Shown: positions 382 to 53,357 of the stretch, in pieces
Layout: the number at the start of each line of letters is the position of its first letter
Numbering within the stretch: position 1 is the first letter of the stretch
The notes under the pieces: model-generated
Database searches by the model: none
What the model was told of the DNA's origin: nothing
The model's input: the letters and a program-made list of their open reading frames with translations, nothing else
Made by a program: the position numbers and the translations under genes
Assembly (NCBI RefSeq): GCF_030013595.1
Contig: NZ_CP122768.1
DNA length: 64,000 nt
Source of the DNA: Escherichia coli
Lineage (GTDB): Bacteria > Pseudomonadota > Gammaproteobacteria > Enterobacterales > Enterobacteriaceae
Strand: one strand, 5' to 3'

Positions 382-389
382 TCAATTAA

Positions 390-806
390 TTAGTGGCGAA
401 CCCCGTCATCGTCTTCATCGACAAAATCTTCATCGTCGCCATCTTCGCCGTTAGGATCTTCAAAGTAAGTGCCCCAACCGTCGTACTCAACGTCAAATTT
501 CTCCGCCAGCGTCATCAGTTGTTCAACCTGGGCATCGATCAGATCGGCATTCAACGCGCACTCGCTGAGGATGTCGCAGCAAATCACGATATCACCATCT
601 TCAACTTCCAGCTCTTCTGGATCGGTCACTTCGTAACCGAGTTTAAACGCTTCAACTGCCGCTTTTTCCAGAGTTTCCAGATCGTCTGCGGAAAGATGGT
701 GTTCGATGGTGTACAGCGCGTCCGGATCGCTGCCATCTTCCAGTAATTCTTCAATAATCAAACGTGTTTCTTCACGCTGTTCTTCCAGTTGTTCCGGGTT
801 TGCCAT
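390..806 (-). CDS. rraB: RNase E inhibitor RraB (138 aa, acidic)
   Basis: ORF track 390..806; recognised protein sequence and length; highly acidic. Confidence 0.9.
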
Positions 807-903
807 GGCTCATTCCTCTTAATGTCCTGCCGATACTCTTATTGTCACACACCACTGACATTGCCTCCACCTTTGTGATAAAGATTTATGCTTTAGACTT
901 GCA

Positions 904-942
904 AATGAATAATCATCCATATAAATTGAATTTTAATTCATT
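904..942 (+). promoter_or_regulatory. Two ARG boxes (ArgR operator) overlapping the argI promoter
   Basis: aaTGAATaatcATcCAta and aatTGAATtttaATTCAt fit the TGAAT-N4-ATTCA ARG box pattern, about 30 bp upstream of argI. Confidence 0.55.
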
Positions 943-967
943 GAGGCGTTAGCCACAGGAGGGATCT

Positions 968-1972
968 ATGTCCGGGTTTTATCATAAGCATTTCCTGAAA
1001 TTACTCGATTTCACGCCAGCTGAACTCAACAGCCTGCTGCAGTTAGCCGCGAAGCTGAAAGCCGATAAGAAAAGCGGTAAAGAAGAAGCCAAACTCACTG
1101 GTAAAAACATCGCGCTCATCTTCGAAAAAGACTCGACCCGTACCCGATGCTCTTTCGAAGTTGCCGCATATGACCAGGGTGCTCGCGTTACTTATCTCGG
1201 CCCAAGCGGCAGCCAAATTGGTCATAAAGAGTCGATTAAAGACACTGCCCGCGTGCTTGGTCGCATGTATGACGGTATTCAGTATCGCGGCTATGGTCAG
1301 GAGATTGTCGAAACACTGGCGGAATACGCTGGCGTGCCGGTATGGAACGGCCTGACCAATGAGTTCCACCCCACTCAGCTGCTGGCGGATCTTCTCACCA
1401 TGCAGGAGCATTTGCCCGGCAAAGCGTTCAACGAAATGACGCTGGTCTATGCAGGTGACGCACGTAACAACATGGGCAATTCGATGCTCGAAGCTGCAGC
1501 GCTTACCGGTCTGGATTTGCGTCTGGTCGCGCCACAGGCATGCTGGCCAGAAGCTGCGCTGGTTACGGAATGCCGCGCCCTGGCACAGCAAAATGGCGGG
1601 AATATTACGCTAACGGAAGATGTAGCCAAGGGAGTAGAAGGTGCTGACTTTATCTATACCGATGTATGGGTGTCGATGGGGGAAGCAAAAGAGAAATGGG
1701 CAGAACGGATTGCATTACTGCGTGATTATCAGGTGAACAGCAAGATGATGCAGTTGACCGGTAACCCGGAGGTCAAATTCCTCCACTGCCTGCCCGCGTT
1801 TCATGACGACCAGACGACGCTTGGTAAGAAAATGGCGGAAGAGTTTGGCCTACATGGCGGAATGGAAGTGACTGATGAGGTCTTCGAATCTGCTGCCAGC
1901 ATTGTTTTTGATCAGGCGGAAAACCGCATGCATACCATCAAAGCGGTGATGGTCGCGACGCTCAGTAAATAA
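968..1972 (+). CDS. argI: Ornithine carbamoyltransferase (334 aa)
   Basis: ORF track; STRTRCSFE carbamoyl-phosphate motif and HCLP motif; next to rraB. Confidence 0.95.
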
Positions 1973-1988
1973 TTGACATCGCTATAAA

Positions 1989-2030
1989 GATGCCGGGAAA
2001 TACAAAAAATATCCCGGCATCATATTATTT
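1989..2030. terminator. Bidirectional terminator between convergent argI and yjgL
   Basis: Hairpin gatgccggga-N13-tcccggcatc followed by AT-rich run. Confidence 0.6.
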
Positions 2031-3697
2031 TATGCAGTGTGAGTTCTATTCTTCCACCCCAATTTTTCTATTACTGTTCGTAAATCTTCCGGAGGATTTA
2101 ATTTTTCTAACTGTTCTTTATTAATATATTCATATATATTTATTTTCCCATCCCGGAGGATTTTCATCATTCTTGTTCTAATTTTTAATTCATTCCCCAT
2201 CTTTTCTTCAAAAATCTTAACGACATAACCCGGTTGTTTTTTTACAATTTCATTTGTTTTTTCTTCATTACCATAAACATATCCTAACTCATTAAGATAC
2301 AGCTGTTCGCCCTCATACTTCTTAAGTAATTGATAGAAGTACCACTTCGCAAAATCAGGTTGCTTCATGAAAAAACCCTTCAAAAAAATATCATTTACTA
2401 AAATGCTGACAGGCACTTCATTAAATAGCAACTTAACATCATCAAATAACCTTAGTATTAAGCGTGATTTTTCTTGATTGCTTAAGTTAAAATCATTGAC
2501 ATATGCAACCAACTTATCCCAAATCAATTCATGTAATTCACAGCTATTTTTATAGGGTTCTTTATCGAGATTGAAAAATAAGGTCTCAGCTATTTTAATT
2601 TTAGATTGATCGCAGCTAAAATCTTTAGATTGATCGCGGCTAAAATCAATATAATTTATCACAGAGCATGCATGCTTTATCTTTGCTGAATCACCAATAT
2701 ATTGCATGCTTTTATTAAAACACCAATCCAGTATTCTTACATCATTAATATATGGGGATTTTAAAAAAGTCTCCAGAATCGAAACAATGACCGGTGCAAG
2801 GTTAACTTTTGCATCATCTAAGGAATCAATAAGAATATGAGACAGGTTAACTTTGATGTCATTAATTTCATTGTCAGTAGCTTTTTTATTATTAATAAGA
2901 TAATTATTTAATACGTTAAGGTCATCTATTTCTTTCAGTATCCCTTTTTTACCCAGCAAGTATGAAATCGATTCATTACATACATAAGGTATTAATAGCA
3001 GATGTTCTTTCCTTATTGCTAATAATGCATTATTCAATGATTTTTCTAATAAATCCGTAATCGTAGAATCAACTGAACCTTTACAACTCACCTGCGAGTT
3101 ATTTAAGTCATGAGAATTATTTAACTCCTGCGGAATATTTAATAGACGAGCTATTTCCTTGTTAGCTTCGCGTTGGTAACACGCCAGAATCTTGTTAGTA
3201 ATCAGGTGTAATGAACTCTCATCTTTTCTTTCAAAGGACTTCCCTTCATAACGATTAGTCGAACCATCAGATTGTTGAAATATAATAGCCGTATGTCCTT
3301 GACGAGTCCCCATAGTAGTGATAGTGGAAAGTGTAATTTCTATTTCCACCTTAGATAAATCTGCTCGTTCCCCTTCAGGATTATTCATAACAAACTTCAT
3401 TATCTCACTGCCATCATTATTTTTGATATAAGATGAGGACTCAATATGAGCCATCATATTTCTTCCCGCTTCATTGGAGCGTTTGCTAAAATCCACATAA
3501 CCCAGGGTAAATATTTTTACCAAAAACTCCAAAAATGTCTTAGGATCAAGGATATTTCTTGTATTATCCTGCCCCTCGGCATTACGGGCAAAATTATTCA
3601 TTCCAACACGCCAGGTATTTATAACTTCACTTTTTTGTTTAAAATTGTCGGCTGATGTAATGTGTTGAGAAAAATTCCAACCTGATATTTTGCTCAT
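2030..3697 (-). CDS. yjgL: Uncharacterised AT-rich protein (555 aa here), YjgL-like
   Basis: ORF track; very low GC relative to flanks; Asn/Lys/Ile-rich; position between argI and tabA. Confidence 0.75.
   Translation of the reverse strand: MSKISGWNFSQHITSADNFKQKSEVINTWRVGMNNFARNAEGQDNTRNILDPKTFLEFLVKIFTLGYVDFSKRSNEAGRNMMAHIESSSYIKNNDGSEIMKFVMNNPEGERADLSKVEIEITLSTITTMGTRQGHTAIIFQQSDGSTNRYEGKSFERKDESSLHLITNKILACYQREANKEIARLLNIPQELNNSHDLNNSQVSCKGSVDSTITDLLEKSLNNALLAIRKEHLLLIPYVCNESISYLLGKKGILKEIDDLNVLNNYLINNKKATDNEINDIKVNLSHILIDSLDDAKVNLAPVIVSILETFLKSPYINDVRILDWCFNKSMQYIGDSAKIKHACSVINYIDFSRDQSKDFSCDQSKIKIAETLFFNLDKEPYKNSCELHELIWDKLVAYVNDFNLSNQEKSRLILRLFDDVKLLFNEVPVSILVNDIFLKGFFMKQPDFAKWYFYQLLKKYEGEQLYLNELGYVYGNEEKTNEIVKKQPGYVVKIFEEKMGNELKIRTRMMKILRDGKINIYEYINKEQLEKLNPPEDLRTVIEKLGWKNRTHTA
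2601..2648 (-). repeat. In-frame 24-bp tandem direct repeat (2 copies) inside yjgL
   Basis: ttagattgatcgcagctaaaatct / ttagattgatcgcggctaaaatca; encodes DFS(R/C)DQSK twice. Confidence 0.8.
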
Positions 3698-18796: not shown

Positions 18797-19261
18797 ATGA
18801 ACTTTCATCAGTACTATCCTGTCGACATCGTCAACGGCCCCGGCACTCGCTGCACACTGTTTGTCTCCGGGTGTGTTCATGAATGCCCCGGTTGCTATAA
18901 CAAAAGCACATGGCGGGTAAATTCCGGTCAGCCATTTACCAAAGCAATGGAAGACCAGATCATTAACGATCTAAATGACACTCGCATCAAACGCCAGGGG
19001 ATTTCCCTCTCCGGCGGCGATCCGCTGCATCCGCAAAACGTGCCGGATATTCTGAAACTGGTACAACGAATCCGCGCCGAATGTCCGGGTAAAGACATCT
19101 GGGTGTGGACAGGCTATAAACTCGACGAACTCAACGCTGCGCAAATGCAGGTTGTTGATTTGATTAACGTACTGGTCGACGGCAAATTTGTGCAGGATTT
19201 AAAAGACCCTTCCCTGATCTGGCGCGGCAGCAGCAATCAGGTGGTGCATCATTTGCGTTAG
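18797..19261 (+). CDS. nrdG: Anaerobic ribonucleotide reductase activating protein (154 aa)
   Basis: ORF track; radical-SAM CxxxCxxC (CVHECPGCYN). Confidence 0.95.
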   Translation: MNFHQYYPVDIVNGPGTRCTLFVSGCVHECPGCYNKSTWRVNSGQPFTKAMEDQIINDLNDTRIKRQGISLSGGDPLHPQNVPDILKLVQRIRAECPGKDIWVWTGYKLDELNAAQMQVVDLINVLVDGKFVQDLKDPSLIWRGSSNQVVHHLR

Positions 19262-19552
19262 TCACTCATCCAGCCGTTTAGTCGCGTCTTCATAAACGGC
19301 TGAGTTCTCTCTCTTACCAATAGCTATCACCAACACGAGCAACTCTTTATCGTTAACCTGATAAACCAGGCGATATCCCTGTGTGCGCAGCTTAATTTTG
19401 TAGCAGTCCGGTAAATCCCGCAGTTTAGCCGATGGATTGCGCGGCCTTTTCAGCACATCCTCAAGCTTTTTTTTAAATTGTTCCCGGACTGTCACGCCCA
19501 GTTTTTGCCACTCTTTCAGCGCCCGCGGATCAAACGCCAGCTCATAGTTCAT
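19262..19552 (-). CDS. RelE/ParE-superfamily toxin (96 aa), RelE-like
   Basis: ORF track 19262..19630 trimmed to MNYELAFD start at 19552; strong similarity to E. coli RelE from memory (DCYKIKLR..GYRLVYQV, KRE near C-terminus); stop codon abuts nrdG stop. Confidence 0.8.
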   Translation of the reverse strand: MNYELAFDPRALKEWQKLGVTVREQFKKKLEDVLKRPRNPSAKLRDLPDCYKIKLRTQGYRLVYQVNDKELLVLVIAIGKRENSAVYEDATKRLDE

Positions 19553-19784
19553 CCAGTCGGACCTTAATGGCCTCTTGTGGGTTGGCCAGTCGTTCCCTGA
19601 CAGTGCGTAACAAGGCTTCTTCACTATCACTGACAGTGAGCGTTTTTACCGGCATTCGTCCATTTTCCGCAACGTACTGAAACAGCAGTCGCCCTGCTTC
19701 AGTAGGCGTGATATTTAATTTTTCCAGCACCGCATAAGCCTCATTTTTCAGTTTGTCATCCAGGCGGACGTTAAGTGTGGCCAT
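19542..19784 (-). CDS. RelB/DinJ-family antitoxin (80 aa)
   Basis: ORF track; ribbon-helix-helix N-terminus resembling RelB; 11-nt overlap with toxin start; ggagg RBS. Confidence 0.8.
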   Translation of the reverse strand: MATLNVRLDDKLKNEAYAVLEKLNITPTEAGRLLFQYVAENGRMPVKTLTVSDSEEALLRTVRERLANPQEAIKVRLDEL

Positions 19785-19809
19785 TATGCCTCCGGTAATT
19801 ATGAAAAGT

Positions 19810-19839
19810 GTAATGCATTATAGCATTACATATGCATTA
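19810..19839 (-). promoter_or_regulatory. Candidate operator/promoter of the TA operon
   Basis: Inverted repeat GTAATGC-N6-GCATTAC plus a third GCATTAC half-site immediately upstream of the antitoxin start. Confidence 0.5.
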
Positions 19840-19975
19840 CATTCATTTCTGGAAAACGCCTCGCAAAAATGAGGACGACACGCAGGAATATGCCGTGGTG
19901 AAGATAGATATTGCGGTGATTTTACGAAGGGAGAAGAAAGCGTTGGGCGGTAACGTTTCACCGCCCAATAAGGAA

Positions 19976-20365
<390 letters not shown>

Positions 20366-38559: not shown

Positions 38560-39903
38560 ATGTTAAACAGTATTTTAGTCATACTCTGCTTGATCGCTGT
38601 AAGTGCGTTCTTCTCGATGTCCGAGATCTCGCTTGCCGCCTCACGCAAAATCAAACTTAAACTGCTGGCTGATGAAGGCAATATAAATGCCCAACGCGTT
38701 CTGAATATGCAGGAAAATCCCGGCATGTTCTTTACCGTGGTCCAAATCGGTCTGAACGCAGTGGCGATTCTCGGCGGTATCGTCGGTGATGCGGCATTTT
38801 CTCCAGCTTTTCACAGCCTGTTCTCCCGCTATATGTCGGCAGAGCTCTCTGAGCAACTGAGCTTTATTCTCTCTTTCTCGTTAGTGACTGGCATGTTTAT
38901 CCTGTTTGCGGATTTAACCCCGAAACGCATCGGTATGATTGCGCCAGAAGCGGTGGCTTTGCGTATCATCAACCCGATGCGCTTCTGCCTGTACGTTTGC
39001 ACCCCGCTGGTGTGGTTCTTCAACGGCCTGGCGAACATGATCTTCCGTATTTTCAAACTGCCAATGGTACGTAAAGATGACATCACTTCTGATGACATCT
39101 ACGCGGTAGTGGAAGCCGGTGCGCTGGCGGGCGTGTTACGTAAACAGGAACACGAGCTGATTGAAAACGTCTTTGAGCTGGAATCCCGTACCGTTCCGTC
39201 GTCAATGACACCGCGTGAAAACGTGATTTGGTTTGATCTCCACGAAGATGAGCAAAGTCTGAAGAATAAGGTGGCGGAACATCCGCACTCTAAGTTCCTC
39301 GTCTGTAATGAAGATATTGACCACATCATCGGCTATGTCGATTCTAAAGACCTGCTGAACCGCGTGCTGGCTAACCAAAGCCTGGCACTGAACAGCGGCG
39401 TACAAATTCGCAACACGCTGATTGTGCCGGATACGTTAACCCTTTCAGAGGCGTTGGAAAGTTTTAAAACCGCAGGTGAAGACTTCGCGGTGATCATGAA
39501 CGAGTACGCACTGGTAGTGGGGATCATCACCCTCAACGACGTGATGACCACGTTGATGGGCGATCTGGTCGGTCAGGGGCTGGAAGAGCAGATTGTCGCC
39601 CGTGATGAGAACTCATGGCTGATTGACGGCGGCACCCCGATTGACGACGTCATGCGCGTGCTGGATATTGACGAGTTCCCGCAGTCGGGCAACTACGAAA
39701 CCATCGGCGGCTTTATGATGTTTATGCTGCGTAAGATCCCGAAACGCACCGATTCGGTGAAATTCGCCGGCTACAAATTTGAAGTGGTGGATATCGATAA
39801 CTACCGCATCGACCAGCTGCTGGTGACCCGAATCGACAGCAAGGCCACCGCCCTTTCGCCAAAACTGCCTGACGCTAAAGATAAAGAAGAAAGCGTCGCG
39901 TAA
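38560..39903 (+). CDS. ytfL: CNNM/HlyC-CorC family membrane protein with CBS domains (447 aa)
   Basis: ORF track; DUF21 membrane domain followed by CBS pair and CorC C-terminal domain. Confidence 0.9.
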   Translation: MLNSILVILCLIAVSAFFSMSEISLAASRKIKLKLLADEGNINAQRVLNMQENPGMFFTVVQIGLNAVAILGGIVGDAAFSPAFHSLFSRYMSAELSEQLSFILSFSLVTGMFILFADLTPKRIGMIAPEAVALRIINPMRFCLYVCTPLVWFFNGLANMIFRIFKLPMVRKDDITSDDIYAVVEAGALAGVLRKQEHELIENVFELESRTVPSSMTPRENVIWFDLHEDEQSLKNKVAEHPHSKFLVCNEDIDHIIGYVDSKDLLNRVLANQSLALNSGVQIRNTLIVPDTLTLSEALESFKTAGEDFAVIMNEYALVVGIITLNDVMTTLMGDLVGQGLEEQIVARDENSWLIDGGTPIDDVMRVLDIDEFPQSGNYETIGGFMMFMLRKIPKRTDSVKFAGYKFEVVDIDNYRIDQLLVTRIDSKATALSPKLPDAKDKEESVA

Positions 39904-40495: not shown

Positions 40496-40867
40496 ATGAC
40501 CCTACGCAAGATTCTGGCACTCACCTGCCTGCTGTTGCCGATGATGGCTTCCGCACATCAGTTCGAAACCGGTCAGCGAGTGCCGCCGATTGGCATTACC
40601 GATCGGGGCGAGTTGGTGCTTGATAAAGATCAGTTTAGCTACAAAACCTGGAACAGCGCGCAGTTAGTGGGAAAAGTGCGGGTACTGCAACATATTGCTG
40701 GTCGCACCTCTGCAAAAGAGAAAAACGCGACGCTGATTGAAGCGATTAAATCAGCGAAGTTACCGCACGATCGTTACCAGACCACCACCATTGTTAACAC
40801 CGACGACGCGATTCCGGGTTCAGGGATGTTTGTGCGCAGCAGTCTGGAGAGTAATAAAAAGCGGTAA
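40496..40867 (+). pseudogene. ytfJ: ytfJ truncated by IS1 (123 codons remain; stop codon supplied by IS1 terminal repeat)
   Basis: Signal-peptide-bearing N-terminus recognised; ORF terminates at TAA inside the IS1 inverted repeat at 40865-40867. Confidence 0.75.
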
Positions 40868-40877
40868 TGACTCCAAC

Positions 40878-41381
40878 TTACTGATAGTGTTTTATGTTCA
40901 GATAATGCCCGATGACCTTGTCATGCAGCTCCACCGATTTTGAGAACGACAGTGACTTCCGTCCCAGCCTTGCCAGATGTTGTCTCAGATTCAGGTTATG
41001 CCGCTCAATGCGCTGAGTATAACGCTTGCTGATAACGTGCAGCTTTCCCTTCAGGCGTGATTCATACAGCGGCCAGCCATCCGTCATCCATACCACGACC
41101 TCAAAGGCCGACAGCAGGCTCAGAAGACGCTCCAGTGTGGCCAGAGTGCGTTCACCGAAGACGTGCGCCACAACCGTCCTCCGCATCCTGTCATACGCGT
41201 AAAACAGCCAGCGCTGACGTGATTTAGCACCGACGTAGCCCCACTGTTCGTCCATTTCAGCGCAGACAATCACATCACTGCCCGGTTGTATGCGCGAGGT
41301 TACCGACTGCGGCCTGAGTTTTTTAAGTGGCGGAAAATCGTGTTGAGGCCAACGCCAATAATGCGTGCACTGGCGCGACAT
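40878..41381 (-). CDS. insB: IS1 InsB (167 aa; normally expressed as InsAB' fusion by -1 frameshift)
   Basis: ORF track; overlaps insA in the -1 frame. Confidence 0.95.
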
Positions 41382-41575
41382 CCGACGCCATTCATGGCCA
41401 TATCAATGATTTTCTGGTGCGTACCGGGCTGAGAGGCGGCGTAAGTGAACTGTAGTTGCCATGTTTTACGGCAGTGAGAGCAGAGATAGCGCTGATGTCC
41501 GGCGGTGCTTTTGCCGTTACGCACCACCCCGTCAGTAGCTGAACAGGAGGGACAGCTGATAGAAACAGAAGCCAC
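41300..41575 (-). CDS. insA: IS1 InsA (91 aa)
   Basis: ORF track; [23 protein letters not shown]... Zn-finger/HTH protein. Confidence 0.95.
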
Positions 41576-41789
41576 TGGAGCACCTCAAAAACACCATCAT
41601 ACACTAAATCAGTAAGTTGGCAGCATCACCATAGAAGTAAACTATCAAAAAACGCTCATTATTAAAATATAACTTATTAGCAATTGAATTTTTGCACTTT
41701 AAATACAATCTCTTTTTATTTATAACTTTTTAGGTTGGGAGAAATCAGGATGGCAGAATCAGGAAATACACTGTTTCTGCCATCTGAAT

Positions 41790-42530
41790 TTAGTAAATAG
41801 ACACTCTGAACCCCGGATTCAGGAACGACTCGCGCGGAGTGTAATCCAGCGGTTTACCCTGCCAGTCGTGAACGTGCGCTCCGGCAGCTGCGGCCACAGC
41901 ATGTCCAGCGGCGGTGTCCCAAATATTCGTTGGTCCGAAGCGCGGGTACAGCTGCGCCTGTCCTTCCGCCACCAGGCAGAATTTCAGCGAAGAGCCGATG
42001 GACGTGGTCTGATGTTCGCCAAGCTGTTGCAGATACTCTTTCAGCTCCGCATCTGCATGGGAACGGCTGATAACCACCAGCGGCGGGCGCGCATCACGGA
42101 CCTGAATCTGCTTGCGCACGCCGCACTCTTCTTTCCACGCTTTGCCTTCTGCCGCGCTGTACATTACGTTCATTACCGGCGCATACACCACACCTAAAAT
42201 CGGTTTGCCGTGGTCGATGAGCGCAATGTTAACGGTAAATTCGCCATTACGTTTAATAAACTCTTTAGTACCATCCAGCGGATCTACCAGCCAGTAACGC
42301 TGCCAGTGCTGACGGACTTCCCAACCGGGAGGATCTTCTTCAGAAAGGACCGGAATATCCGGTGTCAGCGTACGTAAACCGTCCATGATAACGGTGTGTG
42401 CGGCAATATCCGCTGCCGTTACCGGAGAATTGTCCGCTTTGCTGACGACGTCCATCGGTTTCGTCCCGTCGTAGACCTGCATAATGGCATCGCCTGCATT
42501 CCGTGCAAGCTGGCATACTTGATCTAACAT
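41790..42530 (-). CDS. cysQ: 3'(2'),5'-bisphosphate nucleotidase (246 aa)
   Basis: ORF track; inositol monophosphatase family motifs. Confidence 0.95.
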
Positions 42531-42719
42531 TTCTCCACCTCGTCTCTGTGAGCGGTGTTAACTTATTGTTTTACTTATACCCTATCGTTAATGAATGCGC
42601 CAACTGTGATAGTGTCATCATTTTCAAAGCGTAAAATTGTGGCATTCTTCACTGTTCTATAAGTAAGACGTTTATTCTCCCTTTTCTTTCGTATTCCCGA
42701 TGATAAAAGGATGTCCCTG

Positions 42720-50556: not shown

Positions 50557-51195
50557 ATGCCCGGGCGCTTTGAACTAAAACCAACCCTGGAGAAAGTCTG
50601 GCACGCGCCGGACAATTTTCGCTTCATGGACCCGCTGCCGCCGATGCATCGTCGGGGGATCATTATTGCCGCCATTGTATTGGTAGTCGGATTTCTGCTT
50701 CCATCTGATGATACGCCCAACGCGCCGGTGGTGACGCGTGAAGCGCAGTTAGATATTCAGTCGCAATCACAACCACCGACAGAAGAACAGCTGCGGGCGC
50801 AATTAGTCACGCCACAAAATGATCCTGATCAGGTGGCTCCGGTCGCTCCAGAACCAATACAGGAAGGCCAGCCAGAAGAGCAGCCGCAACCCCCCCAAAC
50901 GCAACCATTCCAGCCAGATAGCGGAATTGATAATCAATGGCGCTCTTACCGTGTCGAACCCGGTAAAACGATGGCACAGCTGTTCCGCGACCACGGGCTG
51001 CCCGCTACCGATGTCTATGCAATGGCGCAGGTAGAAGGCGCGGGTAAGCCGCTGAGTAATTTGCAAAACGGGCAGATGGTGAAAATCCGCCAGAACGCCA
51101 GCGGCGTGGTGACGGGCTTAACCATTGATACGGGGAATAATCAACAGGTCCTGTTTACCCGCCAGCCGGATGGCAGTTTTATTCGTGCGCGGTAG
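50557..51195 (+). CDS. ytfB: OapA/LysM-domain cell-division-associated protein (212 aa)
   Basis: ORF track 50521..51195 trimmed to MPGRFELKP; Pro/Gln-rich linker. Confidence 0.85.
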
Positions 51196-51295
51196 ATGAA
51201 GGGTCAACCAGAAGCCAGCTAAGGAGCGTCTCTTTGATGACCTTACGTCTGGCTTCCAGTGCCTGGGGGGAAACCATACTGATGTGTTGACATCC

Positions 51296-51317
51296 TCCAC
51301 GCCCTGAAGGACGTGGA
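51296..51317. repeat. Subterminal hairpin of the IS element (tnpB-distal end; shared core GCCCTGAAGGACG)
   Basis: tccac-gccctgaagga-cgtgga; 13-nt core identical to the hairpin at 52998-53017. Confidence 0.6.
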
Positions 51318-51329
51318 TCCCTGCTACGT

Positions 51330-52538
51330 TCAGGCTGTCGCCTGAATCATTTCGGTGGGTTCCTGCTTCAACGAGCGGCCTGACTGCACCATCTCTCCAC
51401 AGGCAAGAACGGCGTGCCCCGCCGCTAAAATGTTACGAGCGCCATTTACATCGGCGTTCGCTGTATATCCACATACCTGGCATCTGAATTTAATTTGTGA
51501 CAGGCGATTTTCTTTCGCTGTATGACCACAGCACGCGCAACGCTGGCTTGTGTACGCTGGCGGAACAGCAAGCACCTGACCGCCACGCCAGAGCTGCTTG
51601 TACTCAAGCTGGCGGCGCATTTCATACCAGCCCTGATCCAGTATCGAACGGTTTAAACCTGATTTTGCCCGGACATTGCGCCGCGGCTGGCTGACCGTAC
51701 CCGCTGCTGACTTTGACATGTTGCTGACCTTCAAATCCTCAATGACTATCATTGCGTGGTTTTTGCTGACGGTCGTTGTGACTTTGTGAAGGTAGTCCCT
51801 GCGGATATTTGCGATACGGGAATGCAGTCGCTGTATTTTGCGTTTCTGCTTCTGCCAGTTATTGCTGAATTTGACCTTGCGGCTTAACTGTCGCTGAAGT
51901 CTCGCCAGCTTCTTCTGTTTTTTCTGAAAACTGTTTACAGGCTCAAAGACTGTGCCATCTGACAGCGTGGCGAGTTTAACCACGCCAGCATCCAGCCCGA
52001 CCATTGATGCTGAAGGATGAACCGGAGTTGATACTTCACTTTCTGTCTGAATACTGATGTACCACTTACCGCAGGACTGGCTGACCGTGACATTTTTCAC
52101 AACACCCGTGACCTGACGGCTATTCCGGTAGCGCATCCAGCCCAGTTTCGGCAGAAAAATACGGCTGTTTTCCTGATAGAGCTTAACGCCCTACGGGTAG
52201 CGGAATGCATCATTCTGTCCCCGCTTTTTGAATCGGGGAAAAGCAGCCCGCTTCTGGAAGAAGTTTTTGTAAGCCCGCTCAAGGTCTTTCAGTGACTGTT
52301 GCAATGGCTGTGACGGGGCATCTTTAAGCCATTGCGTTTCAGTGGCATTTTTCCACTCAACCAGCCAGGAAGCCATTTTCCCGTAAGGGATGTATTTATT
52401 ACCGGCCTCATGATTCTCATTCTGAAGCGCCAGAGCACGATTGAAAACGAAACGACATGCGCCTGCGAAGCGCCTCATTTCACGCTCCTGTTGACCACCG
52501 GGTCTTAACTGGAATTTAAATGCCTGTCGTCGTTTCAC
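51330..52538 (-). pseudogene. tnpB: IS605-family TnpB (RuvC-like RNA-guided nuclease family), interrupted by one in-frame TAG
   Basis: ORFs 52191..52538 and 51330..52136 share one frame; my hand translation across the gap gives ...DAFRYP-stop-GVKLYQENSRIFLPKLGWMRYR...; C-terminal Zn ribbon CACCGH...CQVCG; RuvC-like D/E/D residues. Confidence 0.8.
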
Positions 52539-52608
52539 AGGTCAAATGATACTTTGGTCTGTGAAAAAAGAAACCTATATCCGGCGTGGAAGGTATTGTG
52601 TTTTCCTG

Positions 52609-53020
52609 ATGCATGTTCACCTGGTCTTTGTCCCAAATACCGACGCCAGATTTTTGACCATGACGCGACAGAAAAACTACGCACTTACTTTTCAAATGTA
52701 TGTGCTGATTTTGAAGCTGAACTGGTTGAAATGGATGGCGAACCAGATCACGTCCATTTGTTAATTAAATATCCTCCCAAACTGGCGATATCCAGTCTGG
52801 TAAACAGCCTCAAAGGCGTATCGGGTAGGTTACTGCGACGAGATCGACCAGATATTGCAGTCAGGTATTACTACAAAGGCGTTTTGTGGAGTCCTGGCTA
52901 TTTTGCCAGTAGCTGTGGAGGTGCGCCAATATCCGCCATCCGTCAATCCATTGAACAACAGCAAACACCTGGTCAGGTGGAAAACCGCGCCGTATATCCC
53001 CGCCCTGAAGGACGGGGTTT
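52609..53020 (+). pseudogene. tnpA: IS200-type Y1 (HuH) transposase TnpA, -1 frameshifted near N-terminus
   Basis: MHVHLVFVP in one frame, then KYRRQIF...DHVHLLI... (HuH motif) in another; switch within gtcccaaatac homopolymer context; no in-frame stop until 53159, so C-terminus undefined. Confidence 0.7.
52998..53017. repeat. Subterminal hairpin of the IS element (tnpA-distal end)
   Basis: cccc-gccctgaagga-cgggg; same loop and core as 51296-51317. Confidence 0.6.
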
Positions 53021-53033
53021 TACGGCACACCGG

Positions 53034-53357
53034 ATAAACCAGGCCAAGCGTATGCTGGTTGATCAAATAATATCCCCCAAGCGCAGCAATATTAATATAC
53101 ACCTGCAATGGGTCGATATCTGGCTTAAAAATATTGTGTTTCTTCCCTTCATCCAATAAGGATTCCATTAACTGCAAGTGCGCATGATTAATTTCTAAGA
53201 GACGCTGTGATTTTACATAATGCACACCTTTACTTTGGTTTTCACTATGCACAATTTTTAAAAACCAAGGATTAGCAATATAATATATCCTAGGTAAAAT
53301 CGATGATTTTTTCAATGGCTTTTTGTGGCTGGTTAACCTGCTGATTAACAAACGCAC
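53034..53357 (-). pseudogene. ytfA: Truncated ORF, N-terminal about 108 codons, ytfA-like; C-terminus replaced by IS sequence
   Basis: 175-codon ORF 52830..53357 whose last third is antisense to tnpA; identity with K-12 ytfA is from positional memory only. Confidence 0.45.

Follow-up and report, generated by a model that had tools for sequence, protein, structure and literature searches.

How did a complete IS1 come to lie between a shortened ytfJ and cysQ, at the place of ytfI, with no target-site duplication at its ends and with DNA missing beside it? The locus is part of the window, the 64-kb stretch of Escherichia coli DNA that was analysed here as a whole; its gene order runs from paeA/ytfL (plus strand, ending at 39903) through ytfK (minus strand), the 5' part of ytfJ, IS1 and a spacer to cysQ and cpdB (Table 1). 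The answer was sought in the structure of the element and its junctions, in a nearly identical sister genome, and in other strains that carry or lack ytfI, or carry IS1 in the same neighborhood.

Table 1. Features of the ytfJ-IS1-cysQ region, in window coordinates
Feature	Position	Strand	Details and basis
Truncated ytfJ ORF, 123 codons	40496..40867	plus	nt 1-367 native
IS1, complete, 768 bp	40863..41630	minus (transposase genes)	sequence reading and comparison
IS1 right inverted repeat (IRR), GGTAATGACTCCAACTTACTGAT	40863..40885		19 of 23 positions match IRL
insB frame, 167 codons	40878..41381	minus	ORF list; expressed as InsAB' fusion
insA, 91 aa, GTG start	41300..41575	minus	ORF list
-1 programmed frameshift motif TTAAAAAAC (A6C), intact	41318..41326	minus	
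Promoter-like hexamer pair	41623..41596		within or near left repeat; sequence scan
IS1 left inverted repeat (IRL), reverse complement GGTGATGCTGCCAACTTACTGAT	41608..41630		19 of 23 positions match IRR
Cassette remnant, 159 bp, 28% GC	41631..41789		surviving part of spacer
cysQ, 246 aa, intact	41790..42530	minus	ORF list and sister alignment

The IS1 copy and its junctions

The element begins with GGTAATGACTCC... at one end and finishes with ...GGCAGCATCACC at the other, and its terminal inverted repeats of about 23 bp (GGTGATGCTGCCAACTTACTGAT and GGTAATGACTCCAACTTACTGAT) are imperfect, with 19 of 23 positions matching, as in other members of the IS1 family. All of its 768 bp are 100% identical to annotated IS1 copies in many other records, so that a chance match is of no concern. 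InsA matches positions 1-81 of the NCBIfam IS1 transposase profile, together with the zinc-binding domain, and InsB alone reaches 148 bits against NCBIfam NF033558 at profile positions 76-199; taken separately, the two proteins cover the two halves of the transposase profile. In a conceptual reconstruction, a -1 shift at TTAAAAAAC yields a stop-free InsAB' fusion of 232 aa, which scores 242.8 bits against NF033558 over positions 1-199 of 199 (score cut-off, 100). A preceding sequence-only reading of this DNA had described a complete 768-bp IS1 with intact insA and insB, and the ends, reading frames, frameshift motif and 232-aa fusion are indeed all intact. To judge from these features the copy is coding-competent, and identical copies occur at many loci elsewhere, as expected for an active allele; the promoter-like hexamer pair would, from its position, be the element's own insA promoter.

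The left junction, between ytfJ and IS1, falls at 40862/40863, after nt 367 of the 555 nt of ytfJ; the element does start inside ytfJ, as had been proposed, and leaves 122 native codons plus 1 nt. The shortened reading frame ends ...AAT AAA AAG C/GG TAA, where the slash marks the junction; the C comes from ytfJ and the GG from IS1. The last sense codons and the TAA stop had both been ascribed to the element; the stop does lie within the IS1 inverted repeat, but instead of several codons only one hybrid codon, CGG (Arg), draws on IS1, and the truncated product consists of 122 native residues plus R. Residues 1-122 match positions 1-122 of the 184 positions in the YtfJ profile NCBIfam TIGR01626, and a full-length family match (TIGR01626 / PF09695) failed, which marks the window copy as a truncated member. 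YtfJ is intact in the sister genome introduced below (184 aa); the window version is without the C-terminal 62 of 184 residues and is, on this evidence, probably inactive. For annotation purposes, ytfJ is here a pseudogene disrupted by IS1. YtfJ itself is a predicted exported protein of unknown function.

The right junction, between IS1 and the spacer, falls at 41630/41631. The 9-mers that border the element, ATAAAAAGC (40854..40862) and ATAGAAGTA (41631..41639), are unlike; they are the same 9-mers on which the sequence-only reading had based its claim of differing flanks without a duplication. No direct repeat of 8-10 bp, with one mismatch tolerated, was found within 30 bp of both IS1 ends, and a 9-bp repeat that correct mapping of the ends might have brought to light was looked for and is absent. 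The window copy lacks the 8-9-bp target-site duplication expected of a simple IS1 insertion, and this shows that it is not a simple insertion; its identity as IS1 is unaffected by the missing duplication.

Other complete genomes with IS1 in this neighborhood were mapped by the procedure used for the window. IS1 lies in ytfI in FDAARGOS_1281 (duplication CGGAAACT, 8 bp), at the 5' end of ytfI in H9Ecoli (CGAAGACTT), and in cpdB in MS 115-1 (CCCGCAATG), J3 (CGAAATTCC) and VG1046-3E9 (CGGCGAAAG). Perfect target duplications of 8-9 bp flank all five copies, from which it follows that the end mapping detects duplications where they are present, and that the missing duplication in the window is not a mapping error. 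The first base of the duplication is C in 5/5 of these controls and in neither window flank, a sample (n = 5) too small to indicate target preference. The IS1 orientation common to all comparators was rejected as a biological signal, since the search joins same-strand pieces only.

The sister genome and the ytfI cassette

The closest comparison is provided by E. coli HCP5S3_I2 from pig faeces, the sister genome, which is 99.98% identical over the other 63 kb of the window, with 15 substitutions and 0 gaps in the 63,232 bp outside the locus; this small number of differences makes the event recent and local. On the left side of IS1, the window matches two pig-faeces strains, HCP5S3_I2 and LCP30S3_I5, at 100.0% identity over 16.9 kb; these are the two close relatives sampled in the collection, and the next-best genome reaches only 99.0%. 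In a gap-free alignment with the sister genome, the window matches up to 40862 and resumes at 41631; its flanks correspond to sister positions 41228 and 42469, both of which abut the IS1 termini unambiguously, and the 1,240 bp between them (41229..42468, 38% GC) are exchanged for IS1. No shared sequence or microhomology that could shift the breakpoints was found between the deleted ends in the sister and the flanks; breakpoints at the exact ends of IS1, without microhomology, point to a transposon-end event and not to a random deletion. As in adjacent deletions, the endpoint lies exactly at the terminus of an intact IS, and the flanks derive from two ancestral sites. What the comparison shows directly is an exact 1,240-bp replacement, with breakpoints at both IS1 termini, an intact IS1 and no duplication.

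The lost DNA comprises ytfJ nt 368-555, the 89-bp spacer between ytfJ and ytfI, the whole of ytfI, and 52 bp upstream of ytfI. In the sister, the locus is free of IS1 and ytfJ is intact; ytfI is already a pseudogene there, with a frameshift near codon 30, and therefore ytfJ is the only intact gene that was lost. The window aligns colinearly with K-12, in reverse orientation and with about 97% identity, with a gap of about 1,241 bp at IS1, and the earlier supposition that DNA is missing beside the element was correct by either yardstick. The rest of the 64-kb window contains no copy of the deleted DNA and no coding sequence that resembles YtfI; ytfI, which the sequence-only reading had wished to see looked for there, is absent, and its relocation within the window was rejected on this ground.

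The absence of ytfI had been contrasted with the gene order of K-12. The absence stands, but K-12 is a poor guide to what should be expected: with at least 80% coverage of the 1,240-bp ytfI segment as the threshold, the segment is present in only 1,603 complete E. coli genomes out of 5,426 (about 30%). A spread sample of the remaining genomes showed matches to no more than its first 175 bp, which belong to the core 3' end of ytfJ. MS 115-1, J3 and VG1046-3E9 were the three strains without ytfI that were examined; their ytfJ has 185 codons and overlaps the cysQ end, with no IS at that place, and the cassette absent from these strains measures 1,224 bp, has 34% GC, and occupies sister positions 41404..42627. 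Of the 211-bp spacer that runs from the ytfI start codon to the cysQ stop, the window has kept 159 bp; the sequence-only reading had estimated about 160 bp from IS1 to the cysQ stop. This 159-bp remnant is missing in the ytfI-less E. coli examined; it belongs to the cassette, hence the window's ancestor was cassette-bearing and a true deletion occurred. The inference of a deletion holds because the remnant is cassette DNA and because the 99.98%-identical sister genome retains the cassette. On the strength of these alignments, the window is read as a secondary deletion of a cassette-bearing allele.

The locus appears in S10 Fig of Higashi et al. 2016 (PMC4720273) as an example of a strain-specific inserted segment bound by H-NS; in that figure, the ytfI segment is present in K-12 and missing in SE11 and SE15. 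Going by the same figure, ytfI belongs to an accessory, AT-rich, H-NS-bound cassette (PMC4720273), and its absence from a genome is not unusual. The event removed the ytfI pseudogene together with most of this reportedly H-NS-bound cassette; as a speculation from what S10 Fig depicts (PMC4720273), the loss might alter the silencing of neighboring genes. cysQ was untouched by the deletion event. No terminator-like site came up when the 159-bp remnant was scanned, and for this reason read-through from cysQ could enter IS1 in the sense direction of insA.

Origin of the IS1 allele and of the deletion

It had been suggested that this DNA comes from a lineage rich in IS1, with E. coli B and Shigella as examples. 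E. coli B is expected to be much closer to K-12 than about 97%, and an origin in E. coli B or Shigella was rejected by the identities to K-12 (about 97%) and to the pig commensal HCP5S3_I2 (99.98%). Nor does the background appear rich in IS1: the sister chromosome shows four places for an IS1-containing query, this locus included, compared with a per-genome median of 10, and the 64-kb window contains a single IS1 copy.

The IS1 allele of the window shares 93.4% identity with IS1A and 96.0% with IS1F, and is a mosaic of the two types; the first ~190 bp from IRL are IS1A-like (2 mismatches vs 19 to IS1F), and the remaining ~575 bp are IS1F-like (12 mismatches vs 49 to IS1A). Identity of at least 99% to the window copy is limited to 150 of 9,595 matching records, and the 100%-identity records among the matches listed (n = 40) all come from swine E. 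coli, on chromosomes as well as plasmids, many of them from porcine ETEC. This distribution suggests that the element was drawn from the gene pool of swine E. coli, and it possibly arrived on a plasmid. The mosaic was considered as a sign of recombination in place and rejected, because the identical mosaic is widespread at other loci; it predates the insertion and is uninformative on recombination here.

For a missing duplication at a deletion that ends at an IS terminus, three explanations are recognised (PMC11708052). With a probability of roughly 0.6, the most likely cause at this locus is that IS1 inserted first and its transposase then brought about an adjacent deletion. In the first step, an IS1 allele circulating in swine E. 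coli would have inserted into the AT-rich ytfJ-ytfI-cysQ interval of a recent, HCP5S3_I2-like ancestor, either at ytfJ nt 367 or 52 bp upstream of ytfI, presumably with the usual 9-bp duplication. In the second step, InsAB' would have performed an intramolecular transposition, with one end of IS1 attacking a target some 1.24 kb distant in the same chromosome; the 1,240 bp in between would have been lost, leaving a single intact IS1 with flanks of different origin and no duplication. Either junction may have been the original insertion, and either end may have moved; the sequence would accommodate both versions.

Several lines of evidence argue for this order of events. Two events suffice for an adjacent deletion, vs three for recombination between two copies. 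Precedents are available: in the Lenski long-term lines, 14 of 14 IS-associated deletions without a duplication had a prior IS at the same site and were adjacent deletions (PMC11708052), and IS1-adjacent deletions of 11-66 kb have been described at nfsB in clinical E. coli (PMC10569738). Finally, the preference is strengthened by a pair of strains at the same locus. E. coli XJ5.2 (NZ_CP074354.1) carries an IS1 without a duplication, flanked by CTTACGCCG and GCGATGATT; the reference has 850 bp between these flanks, and the strain has lost most of ytfI and kept ytfJ intact. As read from the flank sequences, the right junction of XJ5.2 lies about 1 bp from the simple, duplicated insertion of H9Ecoli, a pairing that fits insertion followed by adjacent deletion. 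The XJ5.2 deletion is an independent, parallel event at this locus.

A search for intermediates yielded none. The left junction, as a 100-bp query, was found in 0 of 5,426 complete E. coli genomes, and the right junction, also as a 100-bp query, found no contiguous match in these 5,426 genomes; exact junction strings gave 0 matches in metagenome contigs for both junctions in two scans, and an exact look-up of the 123-aa truncated YtfJ in a protein-position index returned no record. A precursor with a simple, duplicated IS1 at either junction was likewise found in none of the 5,426 genomes, among which two close relatives are sampled. As neither junction turned up in any other of the genomes and metagenome contigs searched, the pair could be used as a strain-specific marker.

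Recombination between two IS1 copies is a less probable route, to be entertained only as a tentative second choice. IS1 would have inserted twice in like orientation, into ytfJ and upstream of ytfI, each time with a duplication of its own, and RecA-dependent recombination between the copies would then have excised 1.24 kb and one IS1. The end state would be identical: a single intact IS1 whose flanks are unlike, with the breakpoints at its ends. Recombination between IS copies is a standard cause of missing duplications (PMC11708052), and a double insertion is conceivable, as the ytfI cassette has been hit repeatedly by IS1 in other strains, at no fewer than three other independent sites. However, on this route three events would have to fit within a short divergence (15 SNPs in 63 kb), in a background where the sister chromosome shows only about three IS1 places; neither single insertion turned up in the genomes, the metagenome contigs or the look-up of truncated YtfJ, and the IS1 mosaic lends no support, the identical allele being found at many other loci. 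The sequence-only reading had favored adjacent deletion or IS1 x IS1 recombination over simple insertion, and these two stay the leading explanations.

A one-step origin appears doubtful, and clearly more so than recombination. Here a break or deletion would have taken up IS1, or arisen along with its insertion; the loss of 1.24 kb would have been simultaneous, and a duplication would never have been made. The singly inserted precursor was found nowhere searched, IS1 is absent from the locus in the sister genome, and de novo IS movements accompanied by large rearrangements and without a duplication are on record (Ngan et al. 2024, PMC11708052). Yet the absence of a precursor is weak evidence where two close relatives only are sampled, every LTEE case resolved to a two-step adjacent deletion (PMC11708052), and the literature searched contained no IS1 example. 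If true, the one-step event would provide an IS1 example, from a natural isolate, of the proposed one-step mutations with an 'IS at the centre of a deletion' (PMC11708052). An assembly artefact, in which the real locus is intact or has the form IS1-segment-IS1 and was collapsed or mis-joined across the repeat, is very improbable; IS copies are classic sites of mis-assembly, but the window is contiguous through the whole IS1 with unique sequence on either side, there is no other gap relative to the sister in 63 kb, the junctions fall precisely on the IS1 termini, no copy of the missing segment occurs in the rest of the window, and a parallel structure exists in the independent complete genome of XJ5.2. 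Causes outside these four deserve even less credence.

Insertion followed by adjacent deletion, the preferred reading, is an ordinary, strain-specific case of textbook IS-associated deletion, a kind of event that is already known, and its importance outside annotation is small. The locus offers a clean natural IS-associated deletion with a near-isogenic undeleted sister and a parallel in XJ5.2, and it illustrates the trimming of horizontally acquired, silenced DNA by IS1. In a softer variant of the one-step reading, likewise doubtful, AT-rich and reportedly H-NS-bound accessory cassettes such as ytfI may be preferentially eroded by IS1.

Relation to known IS1 elements and deletions

The window allele shares with IS1A and IS1F of E. 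coli K-12 the length of 768 bp, the same inverted repeats, the insA/insB layout and the A6C site. The locus as a whole resembles the naturally ytfI-less allele (MS 115-1, J3 and VG1046-3E9, and SE11 and SE15 as depicted in S10 Fig of PMC4720273) in having no ytfI between ytfJ and cysQ; in contrast to that allele, with its clean 1,224-bp absence, full-length ytfJ and no IS, the window retains 159 bp of the cassette and drops 175 bp of core ytfJ. XJ5.2 is similar to the window in locus, IS1 orientation, lack of a duplication and the presence of IS1 in place of ytfI; it differs in both breakpoints, in the length of the deletion (850 bp vs 1,240 bp), in its intact ytfJ, and in its IS1A-type allele, which is 93.4% identical to the window copy.

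The deletions in the gal region of E. coli K-12, associated with Reif & Saedler 1975 and Turlan & Chandler 1995, are reportedly the classical case of IS1 adjacent deletion. In these and in the nfsB deletions, as in the window, an intact IS1 is retained, the deletion extends from its exact terminus, no duplication is present, and the target is AT-rich. The window differs from the nfsB cases in scale (1.24 kb vs 11-66 kb); unlike the classical and nfsB adjacent deletions, it has no known selected phenotype, and its two-step history is inferred.

The IS1 copy and the ytfI cassette

The IS1 copy at 40863..41630 (minus strand) is a mosaic of two K-12 allele types, with a first stretch of approximately 190 bp resembling IS1A and a remainder resembling IS1F. 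Only 150 of 9,595 matching records share at least 99% identity with it. Among the matches listed, copies with 100% identity occur on both chromosomes and plasmids, and every one of these records (40/40) comes from a swine E. coli, in many cases an ETEC strain.

Among 5,426 complete E. coli genomes, only 1,603 have the ytfI-bearing cassette; the strains without ytfI that were examined have a ytfJ of 185 codons, which overlaps the cysQ end. Published work (PMC4720273, S10 Fig) presents the ytfI segment as strain-specific and H-NS-bound. Directly downstream of the cysQ stop, the retained spacer carries a 9-bp inverted repeat, ATGGCAGAA ... TTCTGCCAT (41741..41775), which has no T run and was not called by the terminator scan.

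Coordinates of mobile, cassette and toxin-antitoxin features
Feature	Location	Remarks
ytfI cassette	sister genome (L011) 41404..42627; window part 41631..41789	1,224 bp, 34% GC
IS1, IS1A type, duplication-less	L006 2938..3705	E. coli XJ5.2, NZ_CP074354.1
RelE/RelB-type toxin-antitoxin pair, with cybC	window 19262..19784 and 19976..20362	pair lies between nrdG and cybC; coordinates transferred from sister annotation
Degenerate IS200/IS605-type element	within window 51179..53328	accounts for ~1.75 kb extra vs K-12
tnpB/insQ, internal stop	window 51330..52538	part of this element
tnpA, frameshifted	window 52546..52970	part of this element

A parallel replacement in strain XJ5.2

In XJ5.2, IS1 has replaced 850 bp of ytfI, again with no target duplication, and ytfJ is intact; this replacement is an event independent of the one in the window. 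Strain H9Ecoli has a simple IS1 insertion, flanked by a target duplication, about 1 bp from the right junction of this replacement. A second IS1 resides in the cpdB gene of XJ5.2.

Other departures from K-12

The degenerate IS200/IS605-type element interrupts a gene of the TetR family that appears to correspond to ytfA of K-12. The yjgL-like region (386..3142), labelled as a hypothetical protein in the sister annotation, has 90.6% identity to K-12 with numerous indels, compared to approximately 97% for the rest of the window. The toxin-antitoxin pair is placed within a segment (19258..19966) to which nothing in K-12 corresponds when the window is aligned with K-12; the neighboring cybC is intact in the window, whereas in K-12 it is a pseudogene.
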